From positions 11,829-75,828 of the forward strand of contig CAYOVP010000001.1 in assembly GCA_964407495.1 (NCBI GenBank): 64,000 nt of DNA, written 5' to 3'. Position numbers and translations under genes: made by a program. Shown in pieces: positions 44,574-62,446 of this stretch. Source of the stretch: an uncultured Thermodesulfobacteriota bacterium. Lineage in GTDB: Bacteria > Desulfobacterota > GWC2-55-46 > JADFVP01. The notes below the pieces were generated by a model that did no database searches, was not told where the DNA came from, and saw only the letters and a list, made by a program, of their open reading frames with translations. The first letter of the stretch is position 1; every line of letters begins with the position of its first letter.

Positions 44574-44905
44574 ACGTGCCGGGCCCAAAGGGAGAGAAGA
44601 CGAGCCTCATTGGCGCGGTCATCGCAGGAGGGCTTGCCTCGGCCTGCTGCGTGGGGCCTCTTCTGGTGGTCCTCCTGGGCCTCGGCTCGGCAGGGGTTTT
44701 TGTGAAGATGGAACCACTGAGGCCCCTATTCGCCCTTATTACCCTTTCGCTAATCGGCATCGCGGGCTTCAGACACGTAAGGGGCAGAAGGGCGTGCGCC
44801 GCGGGCGGCTGCGCACCCCGTAGGCCTGTAATGCTCTTTATCCTCGGCGGACTCGCGCTCCTCCTGCTCCTTCTTCCCTCGGTCCTGCCCTATATTATCG
44901 AGTAA
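44570..44905 (+). CDS. merT: Mercuric transport protein MerT
   Basis: TM1 vicinal Cys pair in GGLASACCVGPLLVVLLGLG, ~111 aa with 3 TM helices, overlaps the merR stop. Confidence 0.88.
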   Translation: MNVPGPKGEKTSLIGAVIAGGLASACCVGPLLVVLLGLGSAGVFVKMEPLRPLFALITLSLIGIAGFRHVRGRRACAAGGCAPRRPVMLFILGGLALLLLLLPSVLPYIIE

Positions 44906-44917
44906 GGAGAACTTATC

Positions 44918-45214
44918 ATGGGAAAATTATTAATAGTCGTCATGCTCGCCGTCCTTGCGGCCATACCGGCAAGATACGCATCTTCAAAGGAGGCGACGGC
45001 TGTAATCCACGTATCCGGCATGACCTGCAACATGTGCCCCATAACCATACGCCGCCGCGTCCTCAAGATGGAGGGCGTACTGGAGGCACAAGTGGACCGA
45101 AAGGCCGGGAGAGCGAACGTGACGTATGACGACAGCCTGCTCTCTGCCGAGGCTATTGCCAGGGCCGTAACGGAACTTGGATATCCGGCGGAGTTGGAGG
45201 AAGAAAAGAAATGA
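44918..45214 (+). CDS. merP: Periplasmic mercury-binding protein MerP (HMA domain)
   Basis: Signal peptide plus GMTCNMCP metal-binding motif (GMTCxxC). Confidence 0.9.
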   Translation: MGKLLIVVMLAVLAAIPARYASSKEATAVIHVSGMTCNMCPITIRRRVLKMEGVLEAQVDRKAGRANVTYDDSLLSAEAIARAVTELGYPAELEEEKK

Positions 45215-45318
45215 AGAAGACAGAGAACAGGAAGGCGGGCTGGGCGGGGTTTATAATCTTTGCTGTAATACTCGTGGGCATCGTATATCTTATGACCAGG
45301 TGCGGCGGCACCTGTTAG
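45211..45318 (+). CDS. 35-aa single-TM peptide with C-terminal CxxxC (MKKTENRKAGWAGFIIFAVILVGIVYLMTRCGGTC), translationally coupled to merP
   Basis: ATG overlaps the merP stop (ATGA). GGAGG SD 10 nt upstream. Basic N-terminus, one hydrophobic helix, C-terminal CGGTC. Below the ORF-track size cutoff; coding status is an inference. Confidence 0.45.
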   Translation: MKKTENRKAGWAGFIIFAVILVGIVYLMTRCGGTC

Positions 45319-45322
45319 TGCC

Positions 45323-46991
<1,669 letters not shown>

Positions 46992-47181: not shown

Positions 47182-48957
47182 ATGTTTCTCGATAAAAAAC
47201 GGGGCCTTGGCGCCCTGTTGGTATTTTTTGTTCTGAGTCTTTTCGTTCTGGCCGGGTGCTCGAAGGGTCCTCAGAAGCCGGCTGGCAAGGCCTCCGTTGA
47301 GAAGGAGGCGACAGATGCGGCAAGGCCCGCCTCTGCCGAGAAGGCCGCAGCCGCTACGGAAAAGGCCGCCAAAGGTGGGGCCAGTACCCGGGCAGATGTA
47401 AAAACCGGCAAAAAGGTCTGGATAGAAAAGTGGATATATGCCCGCCCCATGCAGAAAAAGCGCGCAGGAGTGGCCGCCGTGGCCATAGGCAGGCGTATCT
47501 ACGCCATAGGAGGCGGCGAGTTCAGCAAGAAGGGGCTCAAGATCTTCAAGAGCGTTGAGTATGCCGATGTCCGGCCCGACGGTACGCTAAGCCCCTGGAA
47601 GTATTCCTCGCCCCTTACCATGCCCCGTGTCTACCCAGTTGCTGTTATTCACGATGGCTATATCTATGTCATGGGGGGCGAGTCCCTTGACGAGGTCTAC
47701 ACTGGCGCCGAGGACCAGAAGCCGCCGCGCCTTCTTAAATCCGTGGAGCGTGCACGGATTAACCCGGATGGTACCATCGGAAAGTGGACTCTCGAGAAGG
47801 TAAAGATGCACTTCCCACGCCGTGGTGGAGAGGTCTTCGCCGTGGACGGCTGGCTCTATGCCGGAGGGGGCTTTGGCGGAGACTTCCTGAACGACGTAGA
47901 GCGAGCCAGGATAAACACTGACGGCAGTCTCGGCACCTGGGAGGACGATAGTTTCTATAACCACGATAGGTACATCTCTGGTTTTGCCAGAAAGGGCCGC
48001 AGGCTCTATGTCATCGGCGGACACGTGAACAGCCCGGAGAGGGCCATGGAGTCCGTGGAGACTGCGGTGGCAAACCCTGACGGCACACTCACAGAGTGGG
48101 CAGAGACGAGCCCCCTGTATACGAGGCGTTTTCTGAATACGGCCTTAGTGGCGGGAGACACGCTCTATACCTTTGCAGGTCATAATACCATAAACCTGAC
48201 GAGCGTGGAGAGGGCAAGGATCCTTGAGGACGGGACCCTCGGGAAATGGGAGCCCGATACCTCTCTTAATGTGCCGCGCCGCGCCGCCTCCTCGGTTCTG
48301 GTGGGAGACAGGATCTACGTCATAGGCGGGATGATAAAGCCTATGGGGTTCTCCGACTCAGTGGACGTTGTGGAGACCGCCCAGATAGTGGAGGGAAAGA
48401 AACTCGGTAATTATGTTGCCCCTGACTCTGAGGATGCCAGGGAGTACGAGGTCCTTAAGGACACGGTGCCAACTGATGCGCGTAACCATATTTCGCACGG
48501 CAAGGCCTACTTCAAGAGAAGGGCATACAAGAGCGTACTCTTTGATGCCAAGGAGGCCCTAAAGGAGGCCCCCGGCCTGCCAGAGGCATACAACCTGATG
48601 GCTGACGCATACTTTGCCCTTGGACAGAAGAAGAAGGCAGAGAAGGCCCTCGAGGACTCGCTGCACTCAAAGGAGAACTTCTACGCCCTCATGGGCCTTG
48701 CATATGTTGCCTTTGACAGGGAAGACTTCGAGAAATCAATAGGTTATTACGAGCGTGCCGCGGCCCTGAAGCCCGATAACGTCACCGCGCGTTTCAACCT
48801 CGGCGAGGCATACCTCAATGCCGGGAGGTATGAAGACGCCGAGAAGGAGTTCAAGTGGGTCCTCGGCGTGCGGCCAGACCTCGAGGAAGCCAAACTATAC
48901 CTCAATATGAGCCGCAGGCACGTGGGGGGCAGAGCGGGCAAGAAGGGCCAAAAGTAG
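47182..48957 (+). CDS. Lipoprotein with Kelch-type beta-propeller repeats and C-terminal TPR repeats
   Basis: Lipobox LAGC. Six repeats with the Kelch-like hallmark (RIYAIGG, YIYVMGG, WLYAGGG, RLYVIGG, TLYTFAG, RIYVIGG). C-terminal TPR-like helices (..AYNLMADAYFALGQKKKAEKALE.., ..ARFNLGEAYLNAGRYEDAE..). Confidence 0.8.
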   Translation: MFLDKKRGLGALLVFFVLSLFVLAGCSKGPQKPAGKASVEKEATDAARPASAEKAAAATEKAAKGGASTRADVKTGKKVWIEKWIYARPMQKKRAGVAAVAIGRRIYAIGGGEFSKKGLKIFKSVEYADVRPDGTLSPWKYSSPLTMPRVYPVAVIHDGYIYVMGGESLDEVYTGAEDQKPPRLLKSVERARINPDGTIGKWTLEKVKMHFPRRGGEVFAVDGWLYAGGGFGGDFLNDVERARINTDGSLGTWEDDSFYNHDRYISGFARKGRRLYVIGGHVNSPERAMESVETAVANPDGTLTEWAETSPLYTRRFLNTALVAGDTLYTFAGHNTINLTSVERARILEDGTLGKWEPDTSLNVPRRAASSVLVGDRIYVIGGMIKPMGFSDSVDVVETAQIVEGKKLGNYVAPDSEDAREYEVLKDTVPTDARNHISHGKAYFKRRAYKSVLFDAKEALKEAPGLPEAYNLMADAYFALGQKKKAEKALEDSLHSKENFYALMGLAYVAFDREDFEKSIGYYERAAALKPDNVTARFNLGEAYLNAGRYEDAEKEFKWVLGVRPDLEEAKLYLNMSRRHVGGRAGKKGQK

Positions 48958-49241: not shown

Positions 49242-49610
49242 TCACTTTGCCGAGCACTTGCAGAGTTGGCGCAGGTAGTCTTTTAGTTCGCTTATCTCTT
49301 TCTTCGTGAGGGTATCGCCAAAGGGCGGCATCATGCGTGACCTGTTCGTAGCGGCCCCGCCTTCTCTTATGACGTTGATGAGGTCCTCGTCGCTGAGTTG
49401 GCTCATCTTCGCGGCATTGGTGTGGTTTCGCGGCCTGACAGGCTGTGTGGGGGTGTTGTTGGGGCCGTCACCCTTGCCATAGAGGCCGTGGCATGCCGCG
49501 CAGTAGAAGCGGTAGACTTCCTTGGCCGTTCCGGCACTGGCCGGGCCCATGGTAAGGGCACTGAGAAAGACGATGAGTGCCGCTGTCTTTAGAAGGATCC
49601 TGAAACTCAT
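49242..49610 (-). CDS. Monoheme c-type cytochrome (class I, secreted)
   Basis: Signal peptide, single CAACHG heme-binding motif, Met ligand region (MMPPFG). Confidence 0.85.
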   Translation of the reverse strand: MSFRILLKTAALIVFLSALTMGPASAGTAKEVYRFYCAACHGLYGKGDGPNNTPTQPVRPRNHTNAAKMSQLSDEDLINVIREGGAATNRSRMMPPFGDTLTKKEISELKDYLRQLCKCSAK

Positions 49611-49627
49611 GCCCTTTTCCAGTAGGT

Positions 49628-50383
49628 TTATTCCTGCGCCGCAACGTACTCCACAAGGGCCCTGAGTTTGACCTCTGAGAGCATCTTGGAGTACCTTGGC
49701 ATGGGGCTCGTGGGTGTGAAGGCCCCTGGGTTTTTTATGTAAGAGTAAATCCAGTCAGGGTTCAGCCTCTTTGCCGTCCCAATAAGGGTAGGGCCCGTGA
49801 GACCGCCCACAACCTTGGAGCCCCGCCTGATGGTGTGACACCCGTAGCACCCGAGTTTTTTCTGGAATATGAACCTGCCTCGCACCGTTGCCCGGGGCTT
49901 GATGTTGGCCTCCATTACATCAGGTGACTTGAGACCCCGGAGGTAGGCCGCTACCTCCACCGCCTCTCTTGCCGGGAGGGCCATATGATTGCCGTCGTTT
50001 TTCTCTGTAAGGGAGTTGTACTTCATCCCGCGTATGGGTGTTGGGTGGCGGAGCCAGGCCTCGATGAAGCCTTCTCTGAACTTGCTCCCTGCATACCAGA
50101 GCGCAGGCCCCTTCTCGCTGAGCCTCTCCTCTATGGTGGGCTTCTTTCCTGGTCTCTTTACGCTGTGGCAGGAGGCGCACTTGGCCCTGAAGATGGCCCT
50201 GCCGCTACCGGGCCCGGCCATTACCGTTGTAGCCATGAGCAACATGGCCGTAAAGAACGAGAGGACAAGAAGGAACTCGGTGCCCCTCCTGGGGATGCGA
50301 GGGTCTCTTGGGCCAGTTGGCCGGGCCTCCCTGGCAGGAGATTGCCATATTCCGCCCCTTCTCTGTTCTGCGTGCATTGCCAT
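49628..50383 (-). CDS. Diheme c-type cytochrome
   Basis: Two CxxCH motifs (CASCHS, CYGCHT), N-terminal TM/signal (FLLVLSFFTAMLLMATTVMA). Start may be an internal Met (~50287). Confidence 0.8.
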   Translation of the reverse strand: MAMHAEQRRGGIWQSPAREARPTGPRDPRIPRRGTEFLLVLSFFTAMLLMATTVMAGPGSGRAIFRAKCASCHSVKRPGKKPTIEERLSEKGPALWYAGSKFREGFIEAWLRHPTPIRGMKYNSLTEKNDGNHMALPAREAVEVAAYLRGLKSPDVMEANIKPRATVRGRFIFQKKLGCYGCHTIRRGSKVVGGLTGPTLIGTAKRLNPDWIYSYIKNPGAFTPTSPMPRYSKMLSEVKLRALVEYVAAQE

Positions 50384-50930
50384 ATTCTCTCTGTATATAG
50401 AAGAGATGGCCTTTTGTCAAGAATTATGAGGCAAGAAAGGCCACCTGGTGTCTCGGTCTTGCGACGTTGCGGTCTGAATGATCTCTCCGCCCGGCCTTCT
50501 CATGGCTCATGGCAGTATTATTCATGTGGAAGAAGAAGTACGAGTTGAGATTTATTAATATCTGGTGTATAATGACGAAGTTTGGAGAGATGAAGACAAT
50601 CGGCAAACCATTGGCAAGGGCACAGGGGCATCTGGGGGGAGGTGGGGTTTGTATCGCCTCACTCTGCATCCAAGGCCTGGTAGGTACTGTCAGTGGATCT
50701 GGGAAAACGGCGTATGGGGGGCAGGGTGAGAGGGGTATATGAAAGAGACCGGTCTTCATGGCACGGAAGGGCAGGAAAGGGTACATGCCCGTAGATGTAG
50801 GGCCCTGGCAGAGGGGCATCTCTTGACGAGTTTTGTAGCGAAGGTGCAACCTATTCAGATGTCATGATTTTTCATGCAGAAGAGGGTAGATCAGAAGAGG
50901 GTAGATTAACAAATCTTAATACTAAAATCC

Positions 50931-50959
50931 TTGACATTCTACAGAGCGTAGAATATAAT
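50931..50959 (+). promoter_or_regulatory. Consensus sigma70 promoter (TTGACA-17-TATAAT) with a palindromic operator ATTCTAC-N5-GTAGAAT filling the spacer; transcript predicted to be leaderless
   Basis: -35 TTGACA 50931-36, -10 TATAAT 50954-59, dyad 50936-50954. The ATG of the downstream repressor gene is at 50967 (~7 nt after the -10) with no SD. Confidence 0.7.
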
Positions 50960-50966
50960 TTTTATT

Positions 50967-51371
50967 ATGACTGGTAATACACAAAAAGGCATGCTCGGAA
51001 GCCTTGAGCAGGAAATCATGGACACCTTCTGGGACCTCGGTGGCATGAGCGGCAAGGCCGTCCACGAGCATATAAACAGATCGCGCCCCACGGCCCTTAC
51101 AACAGTACTAACTGTAATGGAGAGGCTCAGGAAAAAGGGCCTCCTGAAGAAAGAAAAGAGGGGCGGCGTCTTTATCTTCGAGGCCACCCTCACAAGAGAG
51201 GAGTTTGCCCGCAGGGTCTCTGCCAGGATCTTCAAGGATATCTTCGATCTCTCCACGGGTTCGGCGGCGGCGTCTTTTGTGGACACCCTGGCCGAGGTAG
51301 ACCCAGAAGAACTGAAAAGGCTCGATGAGTTGATTCAGAAGAAAAAAAAGGAACTGGAGAAAAAGTCCTGA
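50967..51371 (+). CDS. BlaI/MecI/CopY-family (penicillinase repressor family) transcriptional repressor; cysteine-free
   Basis: Winged-helix N-domain pattern LGSLEQEIMDTFWDLGGMSGKAVHEHI...PTALTTVLTVMERLRKKGLLKKEKRGGVFIFEA typical of BlaI/CopY. No C-terminal CxC metal motif, no adjacent BlaR1/M56 gene. Confidence 0.75.
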   Translation: MTGNTQKGMLGSLEQEIMDTFWDLGGMSGKAVHEHINRSRPTALTTVLTVMERLRKKGLLKKEKRGGVFIFEATLTREEFARRVSARIFKDIFDLSTGSAAASFVDTLAEVDPEELKRLDELIQKKKKELEKKS

Positions 51372-51646
51372 ACAAGCCCTGTATCCCGGGGCTGTGAGGC
51401 AGGGCGCAGGTGCAGGCGCACTCTGAGTTGTGGGCGATTTTTCGTGAGGGGGGAGGATAGGGACAGAGACCTGCCACTTGGCCCTGGCAAAGGATTGTTC
51501 TAAAGGATCTACAGGGTTGTCTTGGTATCATAGGCGGTCCCTCTTCCGGGGTAGAGGGCAGGGGCCAGGAGTTTTATAGAGTTATGGCCGTTCCAGGCCT
51601 GTGGTATGGTTGCAAATGGTCTGGAGACGGCGATGGCTTTTTTTTA

Positions 51647-51679
51647 CCCATCTTTTCTACTATTGGTAGAAAAGATGGG
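51647..51679 (+). promoter_or_regulatory. Perfect 14-bp-arm inverted repeat CCCATCTTTTCTAC-tattg-GTAGAAAAGATGGG upstream of cusC; the core TTCTAC-N5-GTAGAA is identical to the operator at 50936-50954
   Basis: Read directly; lies 22-54 nt upstream of the cusC ATG (51701) and downstream of a T8 tract. Confidence 0.65.
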
Positions 51680-51700
51680 CTGAGTAAAGAGGGGGCATTC

Positions 51701-53149
51701 ATGTTGAGCCTTGAGAAAAAAAGGATCGGTTGGGCCGTGGCCCCTGCTCCAAGGAGAGGGGGGCTCAGGGTTGGGACCATCTTTTCCGCGCTAATGCTCC
51801 TGGTCTTCCTGGTGCCCTTGGAGGCATCTGGCGCAGGCACTGCGATGGAGACTCCTTCTCGTGCCATGGTCACTTCACAACGCGAAGGGCTGGAGGTAGA
51901 CCGGGCCCCAAGGTCCGAGCCAGAGGACCCTCAGGCGCCCGAGAAGAAGGCAGGGCCGGCCAGGCGCAGTCTTGCCTATTTTATCGGCCTTGCAAGGGAG
52001 CGAAACCCCAGGCTCAGGGCCGCCTTTCGTCGCTGGAAGATGAGCGAGGAGAGGCCGGCCCAGGCAAGGGCCCTTGAGAACCCGGTTCTCAGGTACACCG
52101 AGCCCGCGCGCGAGATAGAGACACGCCTTGGCCCCGTGGACCGCGCCTTCTCGCTGAGCCAGAAACTGCCCTTTCCGGGCAAACTCGGCCTCAAGGGGGA
52201 CATAGCGTCCAAAGAAGCCGAAATAGCGCGCCTTGAGTATGAAAAACTCCTCCGTGACCTTACCGCAGAGGTCAAGAAGACCTACTATGAACTCTACTTC
52301 GTGGACAAGGCCATTGAACTTCAGAAAGAGAACGAGGCCGTTCTCGAGTACTTCGCTGAGATAAGCAGGCGCAACTATGGTCTCGATGTCTCGGAACTCG
52401 ACGAACTCGTCCGGGCCCAGAAGTCCTCGGCAGGCGCCACCTTCGCCCTGCTCAAGGCCAGGGACATGCGAAAGACCGTTACGGCGCGGCTCAATACCCT
52501 CCTTGACAGGCCGCCGGATACAGAAGTGGGCCCAATAGAAGAGCCAGACTTTCTGGACGTGGACCTCACGGTAGAAAAGATGTTTGACCTTGCAAGAAAG
52601 TACAACGAGAACATAAGGCTCGCTGGCCTTGGAGTGGAAAAGAGCGAACTGGAGAGGAAACTCGCGCGCTTCAGTTACCTTCCGGACTTCAGCGTTGGGG
52701 TGAATTACTCACAGATAGGCCAGCCTCCTTCCATGACGAGGAACGCAGGCGACGACGCCCTGTCTTTTACCCTCGGAGTGAGCATACCTATCTGGTTCAG
52801 AAAGAACAGGGCCTCTCTCGATGAGAAGAAGGAAGGGGCCCTTGCCTCGCGGTTCGAGAAGAGGGCCGAACTCCAGGAGATAAGCGGGCTTGTGAAAGAG
52901 GTTTACTACAACATGAGTACATCGAGAAGGATAGCCCTTCTTTACAAGAAACGCTTCATACCAGAGGCCAAGGACTCCATGGATTTTGCAGAGGCGAGGT
53001 ACAAGACAGGCAAGGAGTCGCTGGGAAGGCTCCTCGAGACCCAGTCCATGTGGATAGACTTCAGGCTCATCTATTACCGGTCATTTGCGGACTACCTGAA
53101 GGATATAGCCGAGCTCGAGAGGCTTACGGCCACGGAATTCACAAAGTGA
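51701..53149 (+). CDS. cusC: Outer-membrane efflux protein, TolC/CusC/CzcC family
   Basis: Signal sequence, two tandem OEP repeats with coiled-coil character. First gene of a three-gene RND efflux set. ATG 51701 after an AAAGAGGGGG SD (ORF track starts at 51584). Confidence 0.85.
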   Translation: MLSLEKKRIGWAVAPAPRRGGLRVGTIFSALMLLVFLVPLEASGAGTAMETPSRAMVTSQREGLEVDRAPRSEPEDPQAPEKKAGPARRSLAYFIGLARERNPRLRAAFRRWKMSEERPAQARALENPVLRYTEPAREIETRLGPVDRAFSLSQKLPFPGKLGLKGDIASKEAEIARLEYEKLLRDLTAEVKKTYYELYFVDKAIELQKENEAVLEYFAEISRRNYGLDVSELDELVRAQKSSAGATFALLKARDMRKTVTARLNTLLDRPPDTEVGPIEEPDFLDVDLTVEKMFDLARKYNENIRLAGLGVEKSELERKLARFSYLPDFSVGVNYSQIGQPPSMTRNAGDDALSFTLGVSIPIWFRKNRASLDEKKEGALASRFEKRAELQEISGLVKEVYYNMSTSRRIALLYKKRFIPEAKDSMDFAEARYKTGKESLGRLLETQSMWIDFRLIYYRSFADYLKDIAELERLTATEFTK

Positions 53150-53162
53150 GAGGTCTACATAA

Positions 53163-54554
53163 ATGAAAAAAGTCTTCTTGATATTACTGCTCCTCCTTCT
53201 GGGGGGCATAATGGGGGCAGGGGGGCTGTACATGACCTCCCGACACGGCAGGGAAGCGTCCGCACCGGCAGAGGGGGGGGCAGGGAAGAAGGGCAGGAAG
53301 ATACTGTACTACAAGGCCCCCATGGACCCGTCCTATATCTCCGAAAAGCCGGGGAAGTCGCCCATGGGCATGGACCTCATACCAGTATACGAGGGTGAGG
53401 AAGATACCATGGAGCCGGGTACGGTTAAAATAGACCCCGTGACCATACAGAACATGGGTGTGCGCACGGCCAAGGTGCGCCGCATGAGGTTAGAGAAGAC
53501 CATAAGGACCGTTGGCCGTATCACCTATGACGAGAAGAAGGTCTATCACATACACACCAAGATAGACGGCTGGGTGGAGAAACTCTATTTCGACTTTACG
53601 GGTCAGAAGGTGAATAGAGGTGATACGCTCCTCGAGTTCTACAGCCCCAAACTCATATCCGCCGAGGAAGAACTCCTCCTTGCCAGGAAGATGGCCGCGA
53701 GGATGAAAGAGGTGCGCAGGACCTCCCTCGTTGACCTCAGCAGGCGGAGGCTCGAACTCTGGGATGTGCCCGAGGACCAGATAAGGGAGATAGAGGAGAC
53801 TGGCAAGGCAAAGCGTACACTCCGTATCCTCTCGCCTGTAACAGGAATCATTGTGGATAAGCCCGTGGTCGAGGGCATGTACGTCCAGCCTGGAAGAAAC
53901 CTCTTCACCATAGCGGATATCTCCACGGTCTGGGCCTATGCCGATATCTACGAGTACGAACTCCCCTGGGTGAGGCTCGGCCAGGGCGTGGATATGACCC
54001 TTGCGTCCTACCCTGGGAAGGTCTTTCACGGCCATGTCTCGTTCATATACCCCTTTGTGGAGCCAAAGACAAGGACCATACGCGTCAGGGTGGAGTTCGA
54101 TAACCCGGATTTCAGACTCAAGCCCGATATGTACGCTGATATGACACTGAGGGCGGTAGTAAGCCGAAGGGCCGTGGCAGTACCCAAGGAGGCGGTCCTC
54201 CTCTCGGGTAAGCGGAGCGTCGTCATACTCTCGCGCGGCAACGGAAAGTTCAGACCCCAGGACGTGGTCCTCGGCGCAGAGACCGACGATTACTATGAGG
54301 TGCGCTCTGGCCTCAAACCCGGCGACACGGTGGTGACATCTGCGCAGTTCCTCATAGACTCGGAGAGTAGCCTCAAGGAGGCGGTCTCCAAGATGCTCGA
54401 GGCAAAGAAGATGAAGGGCTCGAAGAAGAAGGGCGGGGCCATGAAGGGTATGAAGATGCCCGGCATGAAGAAAGATATGCCCATGAAGGGCATGAAGATG
54501 GAAGGTATGAAGAAAGATATGCCCATGAAGATGCCCATGAAGGGTATGAAGTAG
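53163..54554 (+). CDS. cusB: RND efflux membrane-fusion protein (CusB/CzcB family) with Met-rich C-terminal repeat tail
   Basis: N-terminal TM, CusB-like N-terminal metal-site region (..KAPMDPSYISEKPGKSPMGMDL..), beta-barrel/lipoyl/alpha-hairpin MFP pattern. C-terminus GAMKGMKMPGMKKDMPMKGMKMEGMKKDMPMKMPMKGMK. Confidence 0.88.
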   Translation: MKKVFLILLLLLLGGIMGAGGLYMTSRHGREASAPAEGGAGKKGRKILYYKAPMDPSYISEKPGKSPMGMDLIPVYEGEEDTMEPGTVKIDPVTIQNMGVRTAKVRRMRLEKTIRTVGRITYDEKKVYHIHTKIDGWVEKLYFDFTGQKVNRGDTLLEFYSPKLISAEEELLLARKMAARMKEVRRTSLVDLSRRRLELWDVPEDQIREIEETGKAKRTLRILSPVTGIIVDKPVVEGMYVQPGRNLFTIADISTVWAYADIYEYELPWVRLGQGVDMTLASYPGKVFHGHVSFIYPFVEPKTRTIRVRVEFDNPDFRLKPDMYADMTLRAVVSRRAVAVPKEAVLLSGKRSVVILSRGNGKFRPQDVVLGAETDDYYEVRSGLKPGDTVVTSAQFLIDSESSLKEAVSKMLEAKKMKGSKKKGGAMKGMKMPGMKKDMPMKGMKMEGMKKDMPMKMPMKGMK

Positions 54555-54756: not shown

Positions 54757-57700
54757 ATGCTCAAGAAGATAATAGAATTCTCCGTAAACAACAGGTTTCT
54801 CGTAATTCTGGGAACCCTCTTCATCATAGCCTTTGGTGCCTACACCATGGGCCGTACGCCCCTCGATGCCATTCCAGATCTATCGGACGTGCAGGTCATC
54901 ATCTACACGCCCTATGAGGGACAGGCCCCGCAGGTGGTGGAAGAGCAGGTCACCTATCCCCTTACGACGGCCATGTTGTCTGTGCCCCATGCAAAGGTCG
55001 TTCGCGGGTACTCCTTCTTCGGCTTCTCCTTCGTATACGTTATCTTCGAGGACGGAACCGACATGTACTGGGCCAGGAGCAGGGTCCTTGAGTATCTCAA
55101 CTTCGTGGCGGGCCGTCTCCCAAAGGGCGTGAACCCCTCCCTCGGCCCAGACGCCACTGGAGTGGGCTGGGTCTTCGAGTATGCCCTCGTGGACAGAACG
55201 GGAAAGCACGACCTTGCAGAACTGAGGAGCCTCCAGGACTGGTACATGAGGTATGAACTCCAGACAGTGCCAGGGGTATCCGAGGTGGCGAGCATCGGAG
55301 GGTATGTAAAGCAGTATCAGGTGGAGGTAGACCCCAACAAACTCGCGGCCTTCGATATCCCCCTTGCCAAGGTGAAGCACGCCATCAAGAGGAGCAACAA
55401 CGATGTGGGCGGCAAACTCCTCGAGATGAGCGAGCGGGAGTTCATGGTGAGGGGCCTGGGTTATATAAAATCTGCCGAGGACATAAGGAACATAGCCATA
55501 GGTGTTGACAAGAACGGAACCCCCATAACCGTGCGTGACGTTGCCACCGTACACCTTGGGCCCGAACTCCGCCGCGGGGCCGCGGACCTCGACGGAGAGG
55601 GCGAGGTGGCCGGAGGCGTGGTCATAATGCGCTACGGCGGCAATGCCCTCGATGTCATCAAGAATGTCAAGAAGAAGATAGAGACGCTGAAGAAGGGCCT
55701 GCCCGGGGGCGTGGAGATAGTCCCTGTCTATGACCGCTCCGGCCTCATAGAGCGGGCCATAGAGACGCTTCGCGGCAAACTCGTGGAAGAGAGCATAGTC
55801 GTGGCTGTCATCTGCGTCCTCTTTCTCCTCCATGTGAGGAGCGCCCTTGTGGCCATCTTCACGTTGCCAGTTGGCATACTCATGGCCTTCATAATCATGT
55901 ACTACCAAGGCATCAACGCGAATATCATGAGCCTTGGCGGTATCGCCATCGCCATAGGCGCCATGATAGACGGCGCCATAGTCATGATAGAGAACGCCCA
56001 TAAGCATATAGAGGAAGCGCCACAAGGAAAGGACCACTGGCAGATAATCATGGACTCGGCAAAGGAGGTTGGGCCGGCCCTATTCTTCTCGCTTCTCATC
56101 ATCACCTTCTCCTTTGTGCCAGTCTTCACCCTCGAGGCACAGGAGGGCCGTCTCTTCAGCCCCCTTGCCTTTACAAAGACATACTCCATGGCCGCCTCGG
56201 CCATCCTTGCCGTAACCATTGTTCCCATACTCATGGGCTACTTTATCCGCGGCAAGATTCTGCCCGAGAAGAAGAACCCCATAAACAGGCTTCTTCTCTT
56301 CGTATACAGGCCTGTGGTGGGCTTTGTCCTGCGCTACAAGAAGACCTTCATACTCATCTCTCTTCTGGCCCTGGTCGCGACCTTGGTTCCGCTCAAGAAA
56401 CTCGGCGGGGAGTTCATGCCGCCACTCAACGAAGGCGATATCCTCTATATGCCTACAACTCTTCCGGGGATCTCCATCACCAAGGCAAAGGAACTCCTGC
56501 AGCAGACGGACAGGATACTGAAGACCTTTCCAGAGGTGAAGAGGGTATTTGGCAAGGTGGGACGAGCCGAGACAGCAACGGACCCTGCGCCCCTCTCCAT
56601 GATGGAGACGACCATAATGCTAAGGCCCCAGGAGGAGTGGCGACCTGGAATGACCATCTATAAACTCATGGACGAGATGAACAGGGCCATAAAGTTCCCT
56701 GGCGTGACCAACGCCTGGACCATGCCCATAAAGACGCGTGTCGACATGCTCAGCACGGGTATCAAGACACCAGTGGGCCTCAAGGTGGCGGGCGATGACC
56801 TCAAGACCCTCGAAGGCCTCGGCAAGGAGATAGAGGCCGTTCTGAGGGACGTGCCCGGCACCCTCTCCGTGTACTCGGAGCGCGTCGTGGGGGGCAACTA
56901 TCTGGACTTCGAGATCGACAGGAAGAAGGCCGCGCGATATGGTCTTACGGTGGGCGACGTGCAGGACGTGATACAGTCGGCCATAGGCGGAATGAACATT
57001 ACCACCACTGTGGAGGGCCTCGAACGTTACCCCGTGAATCTTCGCTATGGCCGGGAACTGAGGAGCGATATCCCGTCGCTGAGGCGTGTCCTAATCGCCA
57101 CACCCACTGGTGCCCATATACCCATAGCCCAGGTGGCCGAGATCCGCATAAGGAAAGGCCCGCCTGCAATAAAGAGCGAGAACGCGAGGCTCAATGCATG
57201 GATCTACGTGGACCTAAGGGGTGTGGACGTGGGTACATATGTGGCGAGGGCGCAGAAGATAGTCAACGATGCCGTGAAACTCCCGCCAGGCTATACCCTT
57301 ACCTGGAGCGGACAGTTCGAGTACATGCAGAGGGCCAAGGCACGGCTAAAGGTCGTGGTGCCTCTTACGCTTCTTATCATCTTCCTCCTCCTGTACCTCA
57401 ACTTCAAGAAGGTGGGCGAGAGCGTAATCGTCATGCTCTCGCTGCCCTTTGCCCTCGTGGGCGGCGTCTGGACTCTCTATATGCTCTCCTATAACATGAG
57501 CGTTGCCGTGGGCGTTGGGTTCATCGCCCTTGCCGGGGTCTCGGCGGAGATTGGTGTCATAATGATAATATACCTTAACATGGCCTGCAGGGAGAGGTTC
57601 CTGAAGGGAACTCTCAAGACGAGGGCAGACCTGGAGGAGGCCGTAAAGGAAGGGGCCTCGCGCCGTATCCGCCCGATCATGATGACAGTATTCGCCATTA

Positions 57701-57879
57701 TCGGCGGGCTACTTCCCATAATGTGGGGCTCTGGCACTGGCTCGGCAGTGATGAAGAGGATAGCGGCGCCCATGGTGGGCGGCATGATCTCGGCAACAAT
57801 CCTCACGCTTCTCGTCATACCTGCCATCTATACCCTCTGGAGAGAGAGGGAGTTCAGGAGAGAGGGAGGAGGGAAATGA
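54757..57879 (+). CDS. cusA: Heavy-metal-efflux RND transporter (CusA/CzcA family)
   Basis: 1040 aa, 12 TM with two large periplasmic loops, HME-RND signature region ..AIGAMIDGAIVMIENA.., conserved proton-relay TM4 region. Confidence 0.93.
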   Translation: MLKKIIEFSVNNRFLVILGTLFIIAFGAYTMGRTPLDAIPDLSDVQVIIYTPYEGQAPQVVEEQVTYPLTTAMLSVPHAKVVRGYSFFGFSFVYVIFEDGTDMYWARSRVLEYLNFVAGRLPKGVNPSLGPDATGVGWVFEYALVDRTGKHDLAELRSLQDWYMRYELQTVPGVSEVASIGGYVKQYQVEVDPNKLAAFDIPLAKVKHAIKRSNNDVGGKLLEMSEREFMVRGLGYIKSAEDIRNIAIGVDKNGTPITVRDVATVHLGPELRRGAADLDGEGEVAGGVVIMRYGGNALDVIKNVKKKIETLKKGLPGGVEIVPVYDRSGLIERAIETLRGKLVEESIVVAVICVLFLLHVRSALVAIFTLPVGILMAFIIMYYQGINANIMSLGGIAIAIGAMIDGAIVMIENAHKHIEEAPQGKDHWQIIMDSAKEVGPALFFSLLIITFSFVPVFTLEAQEGRLFSPLAFTKTYSMAASAILAVTIVPILMGYFIRGKILPEKKNPINRLLLFVYRPVVGFVLRYKKTFILISLLALVATLVPLKKLGGEFMPPLNEGDILYMPTTLPGISITKAKELLQQTDRILKTFPEVKRVFGKVGRAETATDPAPLSMMETTIMLRPQEEWRPGMTIYKLMDEMNRAIKFPGVTNAWTMPIKTRVDMLSTGIKTPVGLKVAGDDLKTLEGLGKEIEAVLRDVPGTLSVYSERVVGGNYLDFEIDRKKAARYGLTVGDVQDVIQSAIGGMNITTTVEGLERYPVNLRYGRELRSDIPSLRRVLIATPTGAHIPIAQVAEIRIRKGPPAIKSENARLNAWIYVDLRGVDVGTYVARAQKIVNDAVKLPPGYTLTWSGQFEYMQRAKARLKVVVPLTLLIIFLLLYLNFKKVGESVIVMLSLPFALVGGVWTLYMLSYNMSVAVGVGFIALAGVSAEIGVIMIIYLNMACRERFLKGTLKTRADLEEAVKEGASRRIRPIMMTVFAIIGGLLPIMWGSGTGSAVMKRIAAPMVGGMISATILTLLVIPAIYTLWREREFRREGGGK

Positions 57880-58238
57880 GAGAGATAAAGGCCTATATGA
57901 GGCGGGATAAGGCAGAGGAAGTGATAGACGCACTCATGGAAGGCGGGGTGGCCGGCTTTACACTCATAGATGTCTGTGGACTCGGTGCCGCCGCATCAGA
58001 GGAGAAGAAGTGGTCCATAGAGTACTGCAAGAAGTACTCCTCAGTAGTCAAAGTGGAGATTGTCTGTCATAATAAAGACGTGGAGCGCATTACAGGTATC
58101 ATAAAGGAGCACGCCTGGACAGGTCACAGTGGTGACGGCATGATCTTTGTCGCTCCCATAATAGAGGCCATAAGGATACGAACGGGCGAGCGAGGGTATG
58201 AGGCCATAGAGCCCTGTGCCAAGAAACCAGCATCCTGA
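57876..58238 (+). CDS. P-II (GlnB)-like family protein encoded within the metal-efflux operon
   Basis: MREIKAYMRRDKAEEVIDALMEGGVAGFTLIDVCG...GDGMIFVAPIIEAIRIRTGERG matches the PII fold signature (GDGKIFV..VIRIRTGE). ATG overlaps the cusA stop (ATGA). Confidence 0.75.
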   Translation: MREIKAYMRRDKAEEVIDALMEGGVAGFTLIDVCGLGAAASEEKKWSIEYCKKYSSVVKVEIVCHNKDVERITGIIKEHAWTGHSGDGMIFVAPIIEAIRIRTGERGYEAIEPCAKKPAS

Positions 58239-58291: not shown

Positions 58292-58696
58292 ATGTCTACG
58301 ATAGAAGCGCGAAAGAGGGTTATATACAGGGTACTGGTCTTTTTGGCCGTCTTTTCCATGATGATGGGCAGTGGGTGGTTTATGGGCCTCTCCCATGCCC
58401 AGGACACTGTGGAGGGATATAAGGTTGACCATGGCATAGTCTGCATGGTAACTGATAAGGTAATGGGCAGGCCCCAGATACCCGTAGTGGTAGGGGGCAA
58501 GACCTATTATGGTTGTTGCAAGAACTGTGTCGGCAAGTTAAAGGGCAATCCTGCCATACGGTATGCAAAGGACCCGGTCACAGGCGCCCAGGTGGACAAG
58601 GCAAGGGCCTTTATCATGGAAGGACCCAACGGCGATGCCCTGTACTTCGAGTCTGCCCTCACGGCAAGGCGCTTTGTCGAGTCCATGAAGAGGTGA
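58292..58696 (+). CDS. Membrane-anchored/periplasmic YHS(TRASH)-type metal-binding domain protein
   Basis: N-terminal hydrophobic anchor, then ..GIVCMVTDKV......KTYYGCCKNC.. paralleling the YHS motif at the CopA N-terminus (DPVCGMTVD...[10 protein letters not shown]). Confidence 0.65.
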   Translation: MSTIEARKRVIYRVLVFLAVFSMMMGSGWFMGLSHAQDTVEGYKVDHGIVCMVTDKVMGRPQIPVVVGGKTYYGCCKNCVGKLKGNPAIRYAKDPVTGAQVDKARAFIMEGPNGDALYFESALTARRFVESMKR

Positions 58697-58725: not shown

Positions 58726-59313
58726 ATGATCTTGAGCCTGTTTTCATTCCTTCCCGGCATGGCGGCCATGGACAATGTCCATCCACTCTTTGTCCATTAT
58801 CCCATTGCGCTCTTCACGACATTTCTCCTGGCAGAGTTTCTCGGCGTAGTCACGAAGAACGAGAACTTCCGGTGTGCCGCTTCTTTCACCCTCTATCTCG
58901 GCAACATAGCCGCCCTCGTTACCGTTGCCGCAGGGTACTATGCCGCGGCCACGGTGGAACACAGCGAAGAGGTGCATGCCATCATGGAGAACCATGAGCA
59001 CTTCGGAGTAACGGTTCTCATAATAGCCACTATCCTCTCTCTCTGGAGGCTGTACGTGAGGAGACGCTTCTCGCCAAAGGCCCAGTTCCTTCACCTCGCA
59101 CTGGCCTTTATCCTATGCGTCATTATCGCCCTTGGCGCAGATCTGGGGGGGCTCATGGTCTACAAGTACGGCGTTGGCGGCGAGGCCGTGAGGATAGAGA
59201 GGGCCCGTATAAGTAGTGATATGGAGGCCCATGAAGAGGACTCTTCCGCCACTGGATCTGTGGCAGAACATAACGGCCAGCACCATCATCATCACCATCA
59301 CCAGGGTGGATAA
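58726..59313 (+). CDS. Four-TM membrane protein with natural C-terminal poly-His tail (QHHHHHHHQGG)
   Basis: Four hydrophobic helices with conserved His residues (HPLFVHYP, HSEEVHAIMENHEHF). Eight consecutive His codons at 59281-59304. Confidence 0.6.
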   Translation: MILSLFSFLPGMAAMDNVHPLFVHYPIALFTTFLLAEFLGVVTKNENFRCAASFTLYLGNIAALVTVAAGYYAAATVEHSEEVHAIMENHEHFGVTVLIIATILSLWRLYVRRRFSPKAQFLHLALAFILCVIIALGADLGGLMVYKYGVGGEAVRIERARISSDMEAHEEDSSATGSVAEHNGQHHHHHHHQGG

Positions 59314-59353: not shown

Positions 59354-62074
59354 ATGGGGGTTGCAATGGAAAGAGATCCTGTCTGTGGCATGACCGTCGA
59401 CCCCGCCAAGGCCGCAGGCTCATTCGTCTACAAGGGTACTACCTACTACTTCTGCAACGTGAAGTGCAGGGAGAGGTTTGCGGCCTCGCCCCGGGATTTT
59501 CTCCACGCAGAGCCTGCGAGCATCTCAGGCCCGAGGGGGGGTGAGGGAGGAGGCGCGGCCAGGAAAGGGCCGCCTGCGCCTACGAGGAAAGGTATCGTGC
59601 CTGGCAAGGAAGGCCCCAAGGCTCAGGCCCTGACGCTCCCCCTTACGGGCATGAACTGCGCCTCCTGCGCCGCGAAGATAGAAAAGGCCCTTGCCGGGGT
59701 TCCCGGTGTCCTCAAGGCCTCGGTGAATTTTGCCGCAGAAAAGGCCTCTCTGGAGTATGACCCATCGGTCGTAGACGGAAAGGACCTCGTCTCTGTTGTA
59801 GAGGGCCTTGGCTACGGCGTACTTGCCTCGCGGATCACACTGCAGATAGGCGGCATGAACTGCGCCTCCTGCGCAGCAAAGATAGAAAAGGCCCTTGCCA
59901 GGGTCCCCGGTGTCCTCAAGGCCTCGGTGAACTTTGCGGCAGAGGAGGCGAGTGTGGAGTTCATGCCAGGTGAGGCAGGCATCGAGGCCATGAAGGCCGC
60001 GGTGACTGGCATAGGCTACAAGGTCATAGATACAGGTGGCGGGCAGGATGCCCTTCAGAAGAAGGAAGAAGCCCGCCTCAGGGAATACAGGGACCTTAGG
60101 CGCAAGATCGTAGTAGGCGCCCTCCTCTCCATCTCCATCCTCCTAATGACCCATCCGGGTCTTACGGGCCTCGACCGCGCCTTTGGTCTTAAGCGCGGCA
60201 CCTGGTTCTTCATCCAATTTCTCTTCGCACTACCCGTGCAGTTCTGGTGCGGCTGGCAGTTCTATGCCGGCGCAATCGCCTCAGCGCGTCACAGGACTAC
60301 GGACATGAACACCCTCATCGCCCTGGGTACGTCCTCGGCCTTCATATACAGCATGGCCGCCACCTTTGCCCCCTGGCTGTTTACCTCCAGCGGCTTTACA
60401 CCAGAGGTCTACTACGATACTTCGGCCATCATCATAGTCCTCATACTCACGGGGCGTCTTCTCGAGGCACGTGCAAAGGGCAGGACCGGCGCGGCCATAA
60501 AAAAACTCATGGGCATGCGCGCAAGGACGGCCCGCGTGGTACGCGCGGGAGTGGAGCAGGAGGTCCCTGTGGAGGAGGTCGTGCCCGGAGACATAGTCCT
60601 CGTGAGGCCGGGCGAGAAGATACCCGTGGACGGCAAGGTAATAGAGGGGCACTCCACTGTGGACGAGTCCATGATAAGCGGCGAGTCCATGCCAGTGGAA
60701 AAGAAAGAAGGTGATACTGTTATAGGCGCTACTCTGAACGGCAACGGGTCTTTCAGGTTCCGTGCCGAGAAGGTGGGTAAAGACACGGCACTTGCCCAGA
60801 TAATCCGCATGGTGGAGGAGGCCCAGGGCTCCAAGCCCCCCATAGCACGGCTTGCCGACCAGATAGCCTCGTACTTTGTCCCAGTGGTCATCGGTATCGC
60901 GGTCCTGACCTTCATCGTCTGGTACTTCTTTGGGCCCCAGCCCTCTCTTACATACGCAATGCTCAACTTCGTGGCAGTGCTCATAATAGCCTGTCCCTGC
61001 GCACTGGGGCTCGCCACCCCTACGTCCATCATGGTGGGTACGGGCCGCGGCGCCGAGAACGGTATACTGATAAAAGGGGGCGAGGCCCTGGAGACGGCCC
61101 ATAAACTCACGGCCATAGTCCTCGACAAGACAGGCACACTCACAGAGGGCAGACCCTCTGTGACAGACGTCATCGCCTCGGAGGGCTTTACAGAGGACGA
61201 TGTTCTCATGTACTCGGCCTCTTCCGAGAAGGCCTCGGAACACCCCCTTGGCGAGGCCATTGTGCGCGGGGCCGAGGAAAGGGGCCTTGATCTCGTGAGG
61301 CCGGAAAAGTTTGTTGCAGTGCCTGGCCGGGGCATACGGGCCACCCTGAGGGGCAGGGAAGTGCTCCTTGGCAACGAGGCCTTCATGAGAGATGAGGGCC
61401 TGGAACCGTCCAGTCTCCTTGAGAGCGCAAAGAGGCTTGCAGGCGAGGGAAAGACGCCCATGTTCGTGGCAGTCGATGGCCGCACCGCAGGCCTGGTGGC
61501 AGTTGCGGACAAACTCAAGCCTCACTCCAAGGAGGCAGTTGCCGAACTAAGGAAAATGGGCCTCGAGGTCGTCATGATAACGGGAGACAACAGGAGGACA
61601 GCCGAGGCCATTGGCAGGCAGATAGGGCTTACGAGGGTGCTGGCCGAGGTCCTACCAGGGGACAAGGCCCATGAGGTGAGGAAACTCCAGAGAGAGGGCA
61701 GGATTGTGGCCATGGTGGGCGACGGGATCAACGACGCCCCTGCCCTTGCGCAGGCAGACGTGGGCATAGCCATAGGAACAGGTACGGACGTTGCCATGGA
61801 GGCCTCGGATATTACACTCATAGGCGGAGACCTGCGCGCCATCGTTACAGCCATTGCCCTCAGCAGGGCTACTATCCGCAATATACGCCAGAACCTCTTC
61901 TGGGCCTTTTTCTACAATACAATACTAATACCCCTTGCCGCTGGTGCGCTCTATCCGTCCTTCGGCATACTCCTGAGCCCCATATTCGCCGCCGCGGCCA
62001 TGGGACTCTCTTCCGTGACCGTGGTCTCCAATGCCCTTCGCCTGCGGTGGTTCAGCCCACCGGCCATTACTTGA
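59354..62074 (+). CDS. copA: Copper-translocating P1B-type ATPase CopA with N-terminal YHS domain and two HMA domains
   Basis: [21 protein letters not shown]. Two [18 protein letters not shown] motifs. CPC ion-channel motif ([12 protein letters not shown]), DKTGTLT phosphorylation site, [10 protein letters not shown] motif (SEHPLGEAI). Confidence 0.95.
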
Positions 62075-62101: not shown

Positions 62102-62446
62102 ATGGACAACATAAGACATCACAGCATCAAGTTCAGGGAGTACGGCGACAAACTCAAGGACCCCGCCGGCGCCATCAAGAGGCTCAATGGGGTGCGGAGA
62201 GTTGAGATAGACCCCGAGAAGAAAGAGGTCTTCGTGGAGTACGACCTCCTCAAGTGCACTGAGGCCGATATAGAGAAAAAGATGATAGACGAGGGGTTTG
62301 TACTCGATAGTAGCCTTGGCGAGAGGCTCAAGAGGGGCTGGCTTCATTATAGCGAGGAGAACGAACGCGAGGCCATGCGCGCCGAGCCCAGGCCCTGTTG
62401 CACAGTGGATGAAAAAAAAGAGACCCACGACGAGCCCATGGATTAG
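62102..62446 (+). CDS. Small hypothetical protein (114 aa), possibly a ferredoxin-like/HMA-like fold lacking the canonical CxxC
   Basis: AGGAGG SD before the ATG; follows copA by 27 nt. Segment ..AIKRLNGVRRVEIDPEKKEVFVEYD.. resembles the HMA beta-alpha-beta pattern but without GMxCxxC. Single CC near the C-terminus. Confidence 0.45.
   Translation: MDNIRHHSIKFREYGDKLKDPAGAIKRLNGVRRVEIDPEKKEVFVEYDLLKCTEADIEKKMIDEGFVLDSSLGERLKRGWLHYSEENEREAMRAEPRPCCTVDEKKETHDEPMD

Follow-up and report, generated by a model that had tools for sequence, protein, structure and literature searches.

The 64,000-nucleotide stretch of DNA analyzed here (the window) belongs to an uncultured Thermodesulfobacteriota bacterium. 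It carries a blaI/petR-like repressor gene (50967..51371, + strand) followed by cusC, cusB, and cusA, the genes of a predicted efflux pump of the heavy metal efflux resistance-nodulation-division (HME-RND) type, with one copy of a short dyad in the promoter of the repressor gene and another directly upstream of cusC. The original prediction, made from the letters alone, held that the repressor is a winged-helix protein of the BlaI/MecI/CopY type that lacks cysteine and has no CopY-type metal site, and both statements were borne out. The 134-aa product contains no cysteine at all, so that neither a C-terminal CxCx4CxC nor a CxC metal motif is found in its sequence. In a comparison with hidden Markov models (HMMs) it matched the Pfam family Penicillinase_R (PF03965) over nearly the full profile (positions 1-114 of 115; E = 4.1e-26; 92 bits, cut-off 22.6), and it scored 54.9 bits against the CopY/TcrY model TIGR02698, below the cut-off of 121.95. 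The solved relatives found closest in a PDB sequence search are BlaI of M. tuberculosis (Rv1846c), MecI, and BlaI. An AlphaFold (AF2) model of the repressor (predicted local distance difference test, pLDDT, 82.7) has helices at residues 12-24, 29-39, and 44-56, a beta-hairpin at 60-73, and then three C-terminal helices; the top 14 hits of a Foldseek search of this model against the PDB were MecI, BlaI, and Rv1846c, aligned at full length over 115-126 columns. By Pfam, PDB sequence matches, and fold search, the repressor is a member of the BlaI/MecI family and has its fold.

The promoter of the repressor gene consists of the −35 hexamer TTGACA (50931..50936, +) and the −10 hexamer TATAAT (50954..50959, +), and it scores 12 of 12 consensus bases in a promoter scan. 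Its 17-nt spacer is filled by the dyad TTCTAC-agagc-GTAGAA (50937-50953), which together with the flanking bases reads ATTCTAC-N5-GTAGAAT (50936..50954), in agreement with the earlier description of a textbook TTGACA-17-TATAAT promoter with a palindrome in its spacer. We refer to this site as operator O1. The 64-kb window has exactly two occurrences of the string TTCTAC-N5-GTAGAA, the one at 50937-50953 and another upstream of cusC at 51655..51671 (operator O2; neither dyad is assigned a strand). Shuffled sequences give an expectation of 0.01 per window, none of 100 shuffles held two or more matches, and a tolerance of two mismatches added a single, unrelated site in the window. The ATG at 50967 stands 7 nt past the −10 hexamer and is not preceded by a Shine-Dalgarno sequence. 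Of the other clade-A loci, the nine examined (L018-L025 and L103) all have a −10-to-ATG distance of 6-7 nt, as does about half of the wider family, and residues 1-8 of the repressor (M-x-x-K-x-Y-K-G) are conserved as protein in clade A. Some gene callers start the repressor at Met9 (P0001, 126 aa); the sole purine-rich stretch ahead of this codon leaves a gap of 1 nt, which is too short for a ribosome binding site. As first predicted, the best reading of this sequence is a leaderless mRNA that starts at the A of ATG 50967, supported by the conserved distance and the conserved N-terminal peptide.

A perfect inverted repeat (51647-51679), whose arms of 14 nt are 51647-51660 and 51666-51679, encloses O2 and ends 21 nt before the cusC ATG at 51701. 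The original prediction gave this distance as 22 nt, a trivial difference, and was right that the repeat is perfect; the arms, however, are not what relatives conserve. The nearest species (L103, with an 83% identical protein) keeps O1, the −10-to-ATG distance, a run of T, and the core of O2, and it lacks the 14-nt arms of O2, a 15-nt tandem repeat at 50877-50906, and about 140 nt of the spacer. To judge from this alignment, the arms are a lineage-specific decoration on a conserved 6+6 core. Immediately upstream of O2, a long hairpin followed by eight T (51578..51645, +) is predicted by RNA folding (−34.3 kcal/mol, z = −4.7; 0 of 200 shuffles fold as well). This hairpin, which a simple terminator scan missed (nothing was reported at 51578-51645), is a probable intrinsic terminator, and with its U8 run it probably ends the blaI transcript in the window. 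In 48 loci the distance between O2 and the T-run, which also precedes the cusC promoter, is constant; the hairpin itself shows no clear conservation, and the combination of a strong hairpin and a U-run is seen in the window only. A promoter for cusC can be proposed at 51643..51672 (+), with the sequence TTTACC-18-TAGAAA and a −10 element that overlaps the right half of O2. In relatives, TTGnnn-17-TAGAAT is a possible reading of the conserved block of seven T and a G, the 8-nt gap, and the dyad; in the window and L103, TTTACC stands where the others show TTGnnn.

Both dyads recur in relatives. A scan of one genome per species, keyed on the BlaI-family peptide and covering the best 80 matches, gave 57 loci of the repressor family in metagenome-assembled genomes (MAGs) of Thermodesulfobacteriota/'Deltaproteobacteria'; the closest homologues of the repressor (68-83% identity) come from MAGs and metagenomes of the same group. 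Every close relative has the same gene order and both dyads, with the five central bases and the flanks free to differ. At site 1, 49 loci yield the consensus cTTGACA-TTCTAC-N5-GT[A/C]GAA-TAT.aT; site 2 is always found just ahead of the first efflux gene, and its consensus, from 48 loci, is aaaTTTTTTTg-N8-aTTCTAC-N5-GTAGAA. Across about 50 species-level loci, the 12 specified bases of both dyads are preserved against a background of drift in the N5 spacer and the flanks; this argues that the dyads are real operators. Among members of the clade that holds the window locus and has no adjacent protease gene (the orphan clade), the ratio of non-synonymous to synonymous substitution (dN/dS) of the repressor is 0.08-0.19. 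Such values, of about 0.1, place the repressor under purifying selection as far as sequence comparison can tell, and since synonymous sites are saturated (dS ≥ 0.8) the retention of the operators is strong evidence of constraint. The claim that two identical dyads serve as operators has thus come through the comparison with related genomes, and we read them as sites for autoregulation of the repressor and for control of the cus module. The right half-site of O1 differs between two sets of loci: it is the symmetric GTAGAA in 15 of 15 loci without an adjacent M56 protease gene and GTCGAA in about two-thirds of the M56-linked loci, and the M56-linked loci with GTCGAA at O1 have a perfect O2. This asymmetry may be phylogenetic, or it may provide basal expression of the sensor from the transcript that it shares with the repressor.

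A separate observation concerns loci in which two blaI-like genes stand in tandem before the cus genes (L008:8001-9011, L009:7162-8172, and L018:6001-6975). The second copy has a promoter with a degenerate dyad, TTATAT-N5-GTGGAA.

When metagenomes were scanned for promoter and dyad as one string (20 specified bases), at least 120 loci matched. Among the matches listed, most are blaI-M56-efflux loci, and the same promoter-operator also directly precedes efflux genes, a gene for a periplasmic Met-rich protein, YHS-like homologues, and a gene for a protein with a heavy-metal-binding domain (HMBD). Its position ahead of metal genes in metagenomes points to a coherent metal regulon. In three of these loci (L155, L192, and L219), a YHS/TRASH-like homologue has a promoter-operator of the family to itself, and an HtpX-type M48 gene lies about 300 nt downstream. 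Matches that appeared to consist of an M56 gene alone behind the family promoter were rejected, as they proved to be these HtpX-type M48 genes downstream of the YHS-like gene. In about 17 near-identical contigs among the matches listed (L106, L108, L112, L119, L128, L130, L140, L168, and others, several of them from human-gut metagenomes), TTGACATTCTAC-N5-GTAGAATA precedes a 73-aa XRE/Cro-like helix-turn-helix gene. This context is an unrelated use of the same promoter-dyad sequence, and the motif is therefore not exclusive to the blaI family.

In about 40 of the 57 loci, a short gene of the Peptidase_M56/M48 type, with a product mostly of 286-310 aa, begins a few bases after blaI, and the M56-linked loci continue with an optional gene for a small periplasmic Met-rich protein and then with OEP-CusB-CusA; most of them break off short of the cusA end. 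The M56 proteins of the family carry HExxH in a large loop rich in Lys and Arg and lack a transpeptidase domain, so the signal is not a beta-lactam. After the last transmembrane segment they have a tail of 33-46 residues with the conserved pattern C-x3-C-x-H ... C-x2-H-C ... H-x-H. Because the Lys/Arg-rich HExxH loop should be cytoplasmic by the positive-inside rule, this Cys4/His-rich tail is predicted to be periplasmic; by homology with the topology of BlaR1, it occupies the place of the extracellular penicillin sensor. By analogy, we infer that the tail is a periplasmic sensor of soft metals. The blaI-M56 pair is the ancestral and still the predominant form of the family. The original prediction had suggested a possibly undescribed arrangement without a cognate protease; to this it must be added that the repressor is not without precedent, as most members of the family carry an M56 gene.

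The window itself lacks the partner, as the original prediction had stated. Searched by tblastn with two family proteases, it gave a best E-value of 0.3, and an HMM built from 44 family M56 proteins reached at best 4.9 bits in six frames; a walk of about 8.7 kb beyond the end of the window, via CopA, found a GGDEF protein, TerB, malic enzyme, pentose-phosphate enzymes, and MscS, and no protease. Nor was a second blaI found in the blaI-cusC spacer (329 nt) or the spacer upstream of the repressor gene (583 nt), where HMM scores were negative and tblastn returned scattered short matches. Short direct repeats shared by the blaI coding sequence and the spacer were dismissed because they are not collinear. 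In a neighbor-joining (NJ) tree, the window and L018-L025, L027, L028, and L038 form a single clade, no member of which has the protease gene; further losses are placed at L062/L064, at L055, and probably at L060. Since the loss is common to a monophyletic clade, it is old and stable, and not an assembly artefact or a recent deletion. We read the orphan state as a derived, clade-wide loss of the adjacent protease gene, on the evidence of the tree. The clade has nonetheless retained the repressor under the constraint described above, both operators, and an A-S-F-V-D region. In this region, S103-F104 of the repressor aligns with N101-F102 of MecI, an Asn-Phe pair in the second C-terminal helix that we take to be the scissile bond of BlaI/MecI proteins; A102-S/C103-F104-V105-D106 is near-invariant in orphan repressors as much as in M56-linked ones. 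In two MAGs, SJ296 (L057 and L062) and GWA2_55_10 (L026 and L064), an orphan locus coexists with a complete one that has the same operator. A reciprocal orphan was found in L099 (5840-6948), at the tmk/atp position where other genomes hold the full cluster: here an M56 gene stands behind an intact family promoter, TTGACA-TTCTAC-N5-GTCGAA-TATCAT, with a blaI remnant of about 35 codons and no RND genes. Genomes that hold both locus types, and a contig that keeps M56 with only a remnant of blaI, make unlinked protease partners plausible.

The genes behind O2 are those expected of a Cu/Ag efflux module. The cusC-like gene for an outer-membrane factor (51701..53149, +; PF02321 OEP, E = 6e-38) has a start, ATGTTGAGC, that is conserved in relatives. 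It is followed by a gene for a cusB-like membrane-fusion protein with an N-terminal HMBD (53163..54554, +; PF16576, E = 2e-83; PF19335; NCBIfam CusB, E = 1.6e-65, below cut-off) and by cusA, for a Cu(I)/Ag(I) HME-RND pump (54757..57879, +; TIGR00914, 1296 bits). The window CusA scores 1360 bits against E. coli CusA (3k07, 3t51) and 588 bits against ZneA, and all three residues of the CusA triad Met573/Met623/Met672 align with Met in the window pump. By these scores and the triad it is a true CusA, and the cusCBA label given earlier was correct. A gene for a P-II-like small protein of 120 aa (57876..58238, +; NCBIfam P-II, E = 3e-16, below cut-offs; PF00543 on the called gene) overlaps the cusA stop with its start. 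Then come genes for an exported or membrane-anchored protein with YYGCC-x2-C (YHS/TRASH-like; 58292..58696, +; weak TRASH match, E = 2e-4, below cut-off), for a DUF2231 membrane protein with a C-terminal His8 tail (58726..59313, +; PF09990, E = 8e-28), and for CopA, a P1B-type Cu ATPase with a YHS and two HMA domains (59354..62074, +), which is syntenic with the cus genes in close relatives. Directly after copA, an HMA-like protein of 114 aa (62102..62446) shows weak HMA/CopZ similarity, has no N-terminal CxxC, and carries a C-terminal P-C-C. A module of cusC, cusB, cusA, and the P-II gene under the control of the repressor had been proposed; control of the module agrees with the conserved operators, and its end does not lie at the P-II gene, as the regulated unit probably extends past it to the YHS-like gene, the DUF2231 gene, and copA.

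The closest functional parallel is found in cyanobacteria. PetR (Slr0240) of Synechocystis sp. PCC 6803 is a factor of the BlaI/CopY family without the CopY cysteines (Garcia-Canas et al., 2021; bioRxiv 10.1101/2020.07.31.226407; commentary PMC7896320), and its partner PetP, a protease of the M48/M56 type, has no sensor domain (bioRxiv 10.1101/2020.07.31.226407; PMC7896320). Degradation of PetR requires both PetP and copper, binding of PetR to DNA in vitro is unchanged by copper, and its operator at the repressed petE promoter, GAC-N5-GTC, lies between −35 and −10 (bioRxiv 10.1101/2020.07.31.226407). The window repressor is likewise a BlaI-family protein without the CopY Cys site. O1 (TAC-N5-GTA) also sits between −35 and −10 and has the same 5-bp spacer, and the partner in the relatives of the window is a short M48/M56 membrane protease without a penicillin-binding sensor domain. 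The response of PetR to copper operates by protease-dependent loss of the repressor, and by analogy we propose the same here. The systems differ in their targets (CusCBA/CopA detoxification here, the plastocyanin/cytochrome c6 switch there), in half-site sequence, in the Cys4/His-rich C-terminal tail of the family protease, where PetP is proposed to use two Met residues of a loop, and in the lack of a protease gene at the window locus. The original prediction found it puzzling how a repressor without cysteine could sense metal. Since PetR/PetP is already known to respond to copper through a sensor-less protease, the lack of cysteine is not in itself the puzzle. The puzzle is therefore narrower than first stated, as a PetRP-type system is known and the family normally has a protease partner.

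With BlaI/BlaR1 and MecI/MecR1 of Staphylococcus and Bacillus, the locus shares the Pfam family, the fold, a promoter with a dyad operator for autoregulation (here predicted), and the blaI-then-M56 order seen in relatives of the window gene; S103-F104 of the repressor aligns with the scissile position of MecI. It differs from them in core spacing (TAC-N5-GTA, as against TACA-N2-TGTA), in the regulation of metal efflux genes, and in having no adjacent protease gene in the window. A 2026 survey found a penicillin-binding domain in about 6% of M56 proteins and 96% of M56 proteins within five genes of a BlaI homologue, and according to a 2023 review the role of BlaR homologues in heterotrophs 'remains to be elucidated'. 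CopY/TcrY of Firmicutes belongs to the same superfamily and also targets copper export genes. The window operators, however, are TAC-N5-GTA and not the cop box TACAnnTGTA (TAC-N4-GTA), CopY regulates CopA and not an RND pump, and the CopY metal motif, CxCx4CxC or CxC (PMC11672702), is missing from the window repressor; a 2024 review describes CopY as confined to few Firmicutes. A more distant counterpart is carried by a conjugative P. aeruginosa plasmid of 530 kb (CP109756.1, L101, 400204-407362), where genes annotated as BlaI-M56-TolC-membrane-fusion protein-CusA/CzcA, in the order of the predominant form of the family, have a relaxase gene as their neighbor. Its regulator is also free of cysteine, the putative scissile region ends in ...SAFVD, and there are two copies of a dyad, one before blaI and one before tolC. 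It differs in that the regulator shares 31% identity, the dyad is AACCGATTGACGnTCGGT, the M56 protein has no Cys/His tail, and the protease gene is retained.

Cus-type pumps are usually described under two-component control of the CusRS type, and CopA under sensors of the MerR, CsoR, or CopY type. In E. coli, CusRS controls the orthologous Cu/Ag RND pump (cusCFBA); CusS senses periplasmic metal, and a phosphorelay activates transcription. Sensing in the periplasm would be common to CusS and, by analogy, to the M56 tail of the family, whereas activation by phosphorelay contrasts with the proteolytic derepression proposed here. No cusRS genes were found next to the window pump, and a literature search for control of an HME-RND pump by BlaI/M56 found no paper. 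A Cys-free copper switch of the BlaI type with a protease is already known from PetRP; for HME-RND pumps the arrangement is undescribed, as the original prediction had suggested. The new elements are the cus/copA target, an M56 sensor with a Cys/His tail, the conserved two-operator layout, and a clade without a linked protease.

Taken together, these comparisons suggest that the repressor gates the cus/copA operon and its own gene, and that induction depends on a protease, of the M56 type or another, encoded elsewhere in the genome; for the proposal as a whole we consider the balance to be slightly favorable. A dimeric repressor of the BlaI/MecI fold, similar to PetR, would bind O1 and O2. Binding at O1 would block the strong leaderless promoter of the repressor itself, resulting in negative autoregulation, and binding at O2 would overlap the −10 element of a weaker cusC promoter, whose −35 element would be formed by the end of the conserved T-run, and would keep cusCBA, the P-II-like, YHS-like, and DUF2231 genes, and probably copA, off. 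As the hairpin at 51578-51645 probably ends the blaI transcript, cusC would depend on the promoter at O2. We hold this part of the proposal, the repressor and its operators, with high confidence. In relatives with both genes, the M56 tail would sense Cu/Ag in the periplasm and the protease would then cleave the repressor, as in BlaR1-BlaI and PetP-PetR. In the clade of the window, induction would require removal of the repressor, most economically through cleavage by a protease encoded elsewhere; proteolytic inactivation seems the most likely course here too because the repressor, its putative scissile region, and both operators have been kept under strong constraint. For a protease acting in trans we are more tentative and put the chances a little below even. 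The fold and family of the repressor, the conservation and layout of the operators, the type of pump, the lack of a protease gene over about 73 kb, and the pattern of loss on the tree are observed; that the repressor binds DNA, represses, and responds to metal, and what inactivates it, we infer.

Several observations weigh against this proposal. The predicted cusC promoter of the window (TTTACC/TAGAAA) looks weak. No M56 gene is present over about 73 kb, that is, the 64-kb window and the roughly 8.7 kb beyond its end, and no M56 remnant was found in the blaI-cusC spacer or in the upstream spacer. The A-S-F-V-D stretch lies in a helix of the dimerization domain, and its conservation may be structural and not a sign of cleavage. 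Each of eight clade-A MAGs shows one family locus among the best 80 matches, and so no second blaI-M56 pair of this family, a count made on incomplete assemblies by a repressor-keyed scan that is blind to a lone M56 gene. Finally, the best M56 homologues (P0069, P0078, and P0050) come from samples other than those of the orphan clade.

Other explanations have to be considered. That the dyads are chance palindromes, or sites of an unrelated factor, is essentially excluded. The occurrence of the promoter-dyad string before the unrelated XRE/Cro-like gene, in the roughly 17 contigs mentioned among the matches listed, would agree with such a view; it is opposed by the low chance expectation, by the presence of the dyad at both positions alongside a blaI-like gene in some 50 species-level genomes, by its location in the regulator's own promoter, by an xAC-N5-GTx geometry that matches the PetR site, and by the 31%-identical BlaI-M56-RND locus of the P. 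aeruginosa plasmid, which has the same two-site layout with a different dyad. A second possibility is that the orphan repressor senses Cu(I), Ag(I), or another ligand directly through His, Met, or Glu and loses affinity for DNA, with no protease involved. CopY, of the same superfamily, binds metal directly, the orphan state is stable across the whole clade, and His33 is found in 12 of 13 members of the orphan clade as against 7 of 40 M56-linked members, with His35 in 7 of 13 members of the clade and not among the four commonest residues at its position in M56-linked repressors. His33, however, corresponds in the alignment to a position of MecI helix 2 that is hydrophobic and buried, and His33 and His35 stand at i and i+2 on the helix. 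A search for a set of two or three conserved metal ligands specific to the orphan clade found none: the sole position with a residue present in at least 85% of orphans and at most 15% of the others is Leu60, where the others have Val. Since the repressor is also without cysteine and PetR binds DNA regardless of copper in vitro, we regard direct sensing as quite unlikely.

The repressor could also be inactivated by something other than an M56 protease, such as a general or stress protease (Lon, FtsH, or an HtpX-type M48 enzyme) or an anti-repressor encoded in the operon, for which the P-II-like protein and the HMA-like protein (62102-62446) are candidates. MecR2 is an anti-repressor that acts on MecI and offers a parallel for such an anti-repressor. 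The lack of an M56 gene within about 73 kb, the conservation of small cytoplasmic proteins of unknown role in the operon, the HtpX-like M48 gene after a dyad-controlled YHS-like gene in one family of metagenome loci, and the copper-activated protease proposed for CopY-dependent copper sensing in E. hirae all fit this idea; the case is circumstantial, as no candidate protein is linked directly to the repressor, and we think it has a small but real chance of being right. A different reading would have the repressor not inducible at all, held at a fixed low level by tight autoregulation, with another regulator responsible for the induction of cus/copA by metal. The symmetric O1 of all 15 orphan loci, compared with GTCGAA in some two-thirds of the M56-linked loci, and the terminator-like hairpin between blaI and cusC in the window are compatible with it. 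No other regulator of metal genes adjoins cus, though, as the sole MerR-type gene nearby belongs to a mer operon; O2 is conserved at the expected efflux promoter in orphan and paired loci, which implies the same switch logic; and strong purifying selection on a large operon would be unexpected if it were permanently repressed. We therefore consider a non-inducible repressor improbable, marginally more so than direct sensing. Beyond these, it is conceivable, though we doubt it, that the orphan clade has no M56 gene anywhere in its genomes and has acquired a new way to switch the repressor off, by a direct ligand or an anti-repressor of the operon, and that the family as a whole constitutes an undescribed periplasmic metal sensor for HME-RND pumps, built on M56 proteins with the Cys4/His tail.

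If the repressor does act through O1 and O2 and is removed by proteolysis, the locus and its approximately 60 relatives would point to another circuit for the control of HME-RND pumps, composed of a BlaI-fold repressor, two operators, and, ancestrally, a BlaR1-like protease that carries a short, Cys/His-rich, predicted periplasmic tail in place of the beta-lactam sensor domain. It would extend the recently discovered principle of PetR/PetP, the sensing of copper by regulated proteolysis, beyond the cyanobacterial cofactor switch to metal detoxification in anaerobic Thermodesulfobacteriota, and the related layout on a conjugative plasmid of P. aeruginosa indicates that the arrangement is not confined to MAGs. 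The orphan clade represents a natural experiment on what inactivates a BlaI-type repressor without a neighboring protease gene. With a short, exact, and portable operator and a promoter of perfect sigma-70 consensus, the parts should lend themselves readily to tests in E. coli and could serve as a metal-responsive switch.

The surroundings of the repressor gene also bear the mark of metal resistance. A complete merR-merT-merP-merF-merA operon (44181-46991) lies about 4 kb upstream of it, followed by a gene for a Kelch/TPR protein (47182-48957) and two genes for c-type cytochromes on the − strand (49242-50383). The block of mer, Kelch/TPR, and cytochrome genes is syntenic with the repressor/cus block in several relatives, and with a mer operon and metal genes around the repressor the locus is part of a metal-resistance island. 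In L023 (5350-5850), a third complete promoter of the form TTGACA-dyad-TATTCT is found about 80 nt upstream of a gene for a mono-heme cytochrome c, a homologue of the divergently oriented cytochrome of the window. To judge from this promoter, the regulon may in some species include the cytochrome.

The intergenic region upstream of the repressor gene (50384-50966) is unusually long, with 583 nt, and ranges from 163 to about 600 nt in relatives. An open reading frame within it (50424-50849, −, 141 aa) was rejected as a gene, as it has no family match, is of low complexity, and is not called by gene callers, and a search of 50300-51800 against Rfam gave no match. A second promoter-like site close to consensus, TTGAGA-17-TATAAT (50545-50573, +), lies in the region, and no called gene follows it. 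A 15-mer, CAGAAGAGGGTAGAT, is perfectly duplicated in tandem at 50877-50906, 25-55 nt upstream of the −35 hexamer, with a degenerate third copy at 50772-50786; the tandem duplication is not kept in L103, the nearest species. Each copy of CAGAAGAGGGTAGAT contains GTAGAT, one mismatch away from the operator half-site GTAGAA, and the 15-bp period of the repeat is that of the TTTGAC-N9-TTTGAC direct repeats at PetR-activated promoters.

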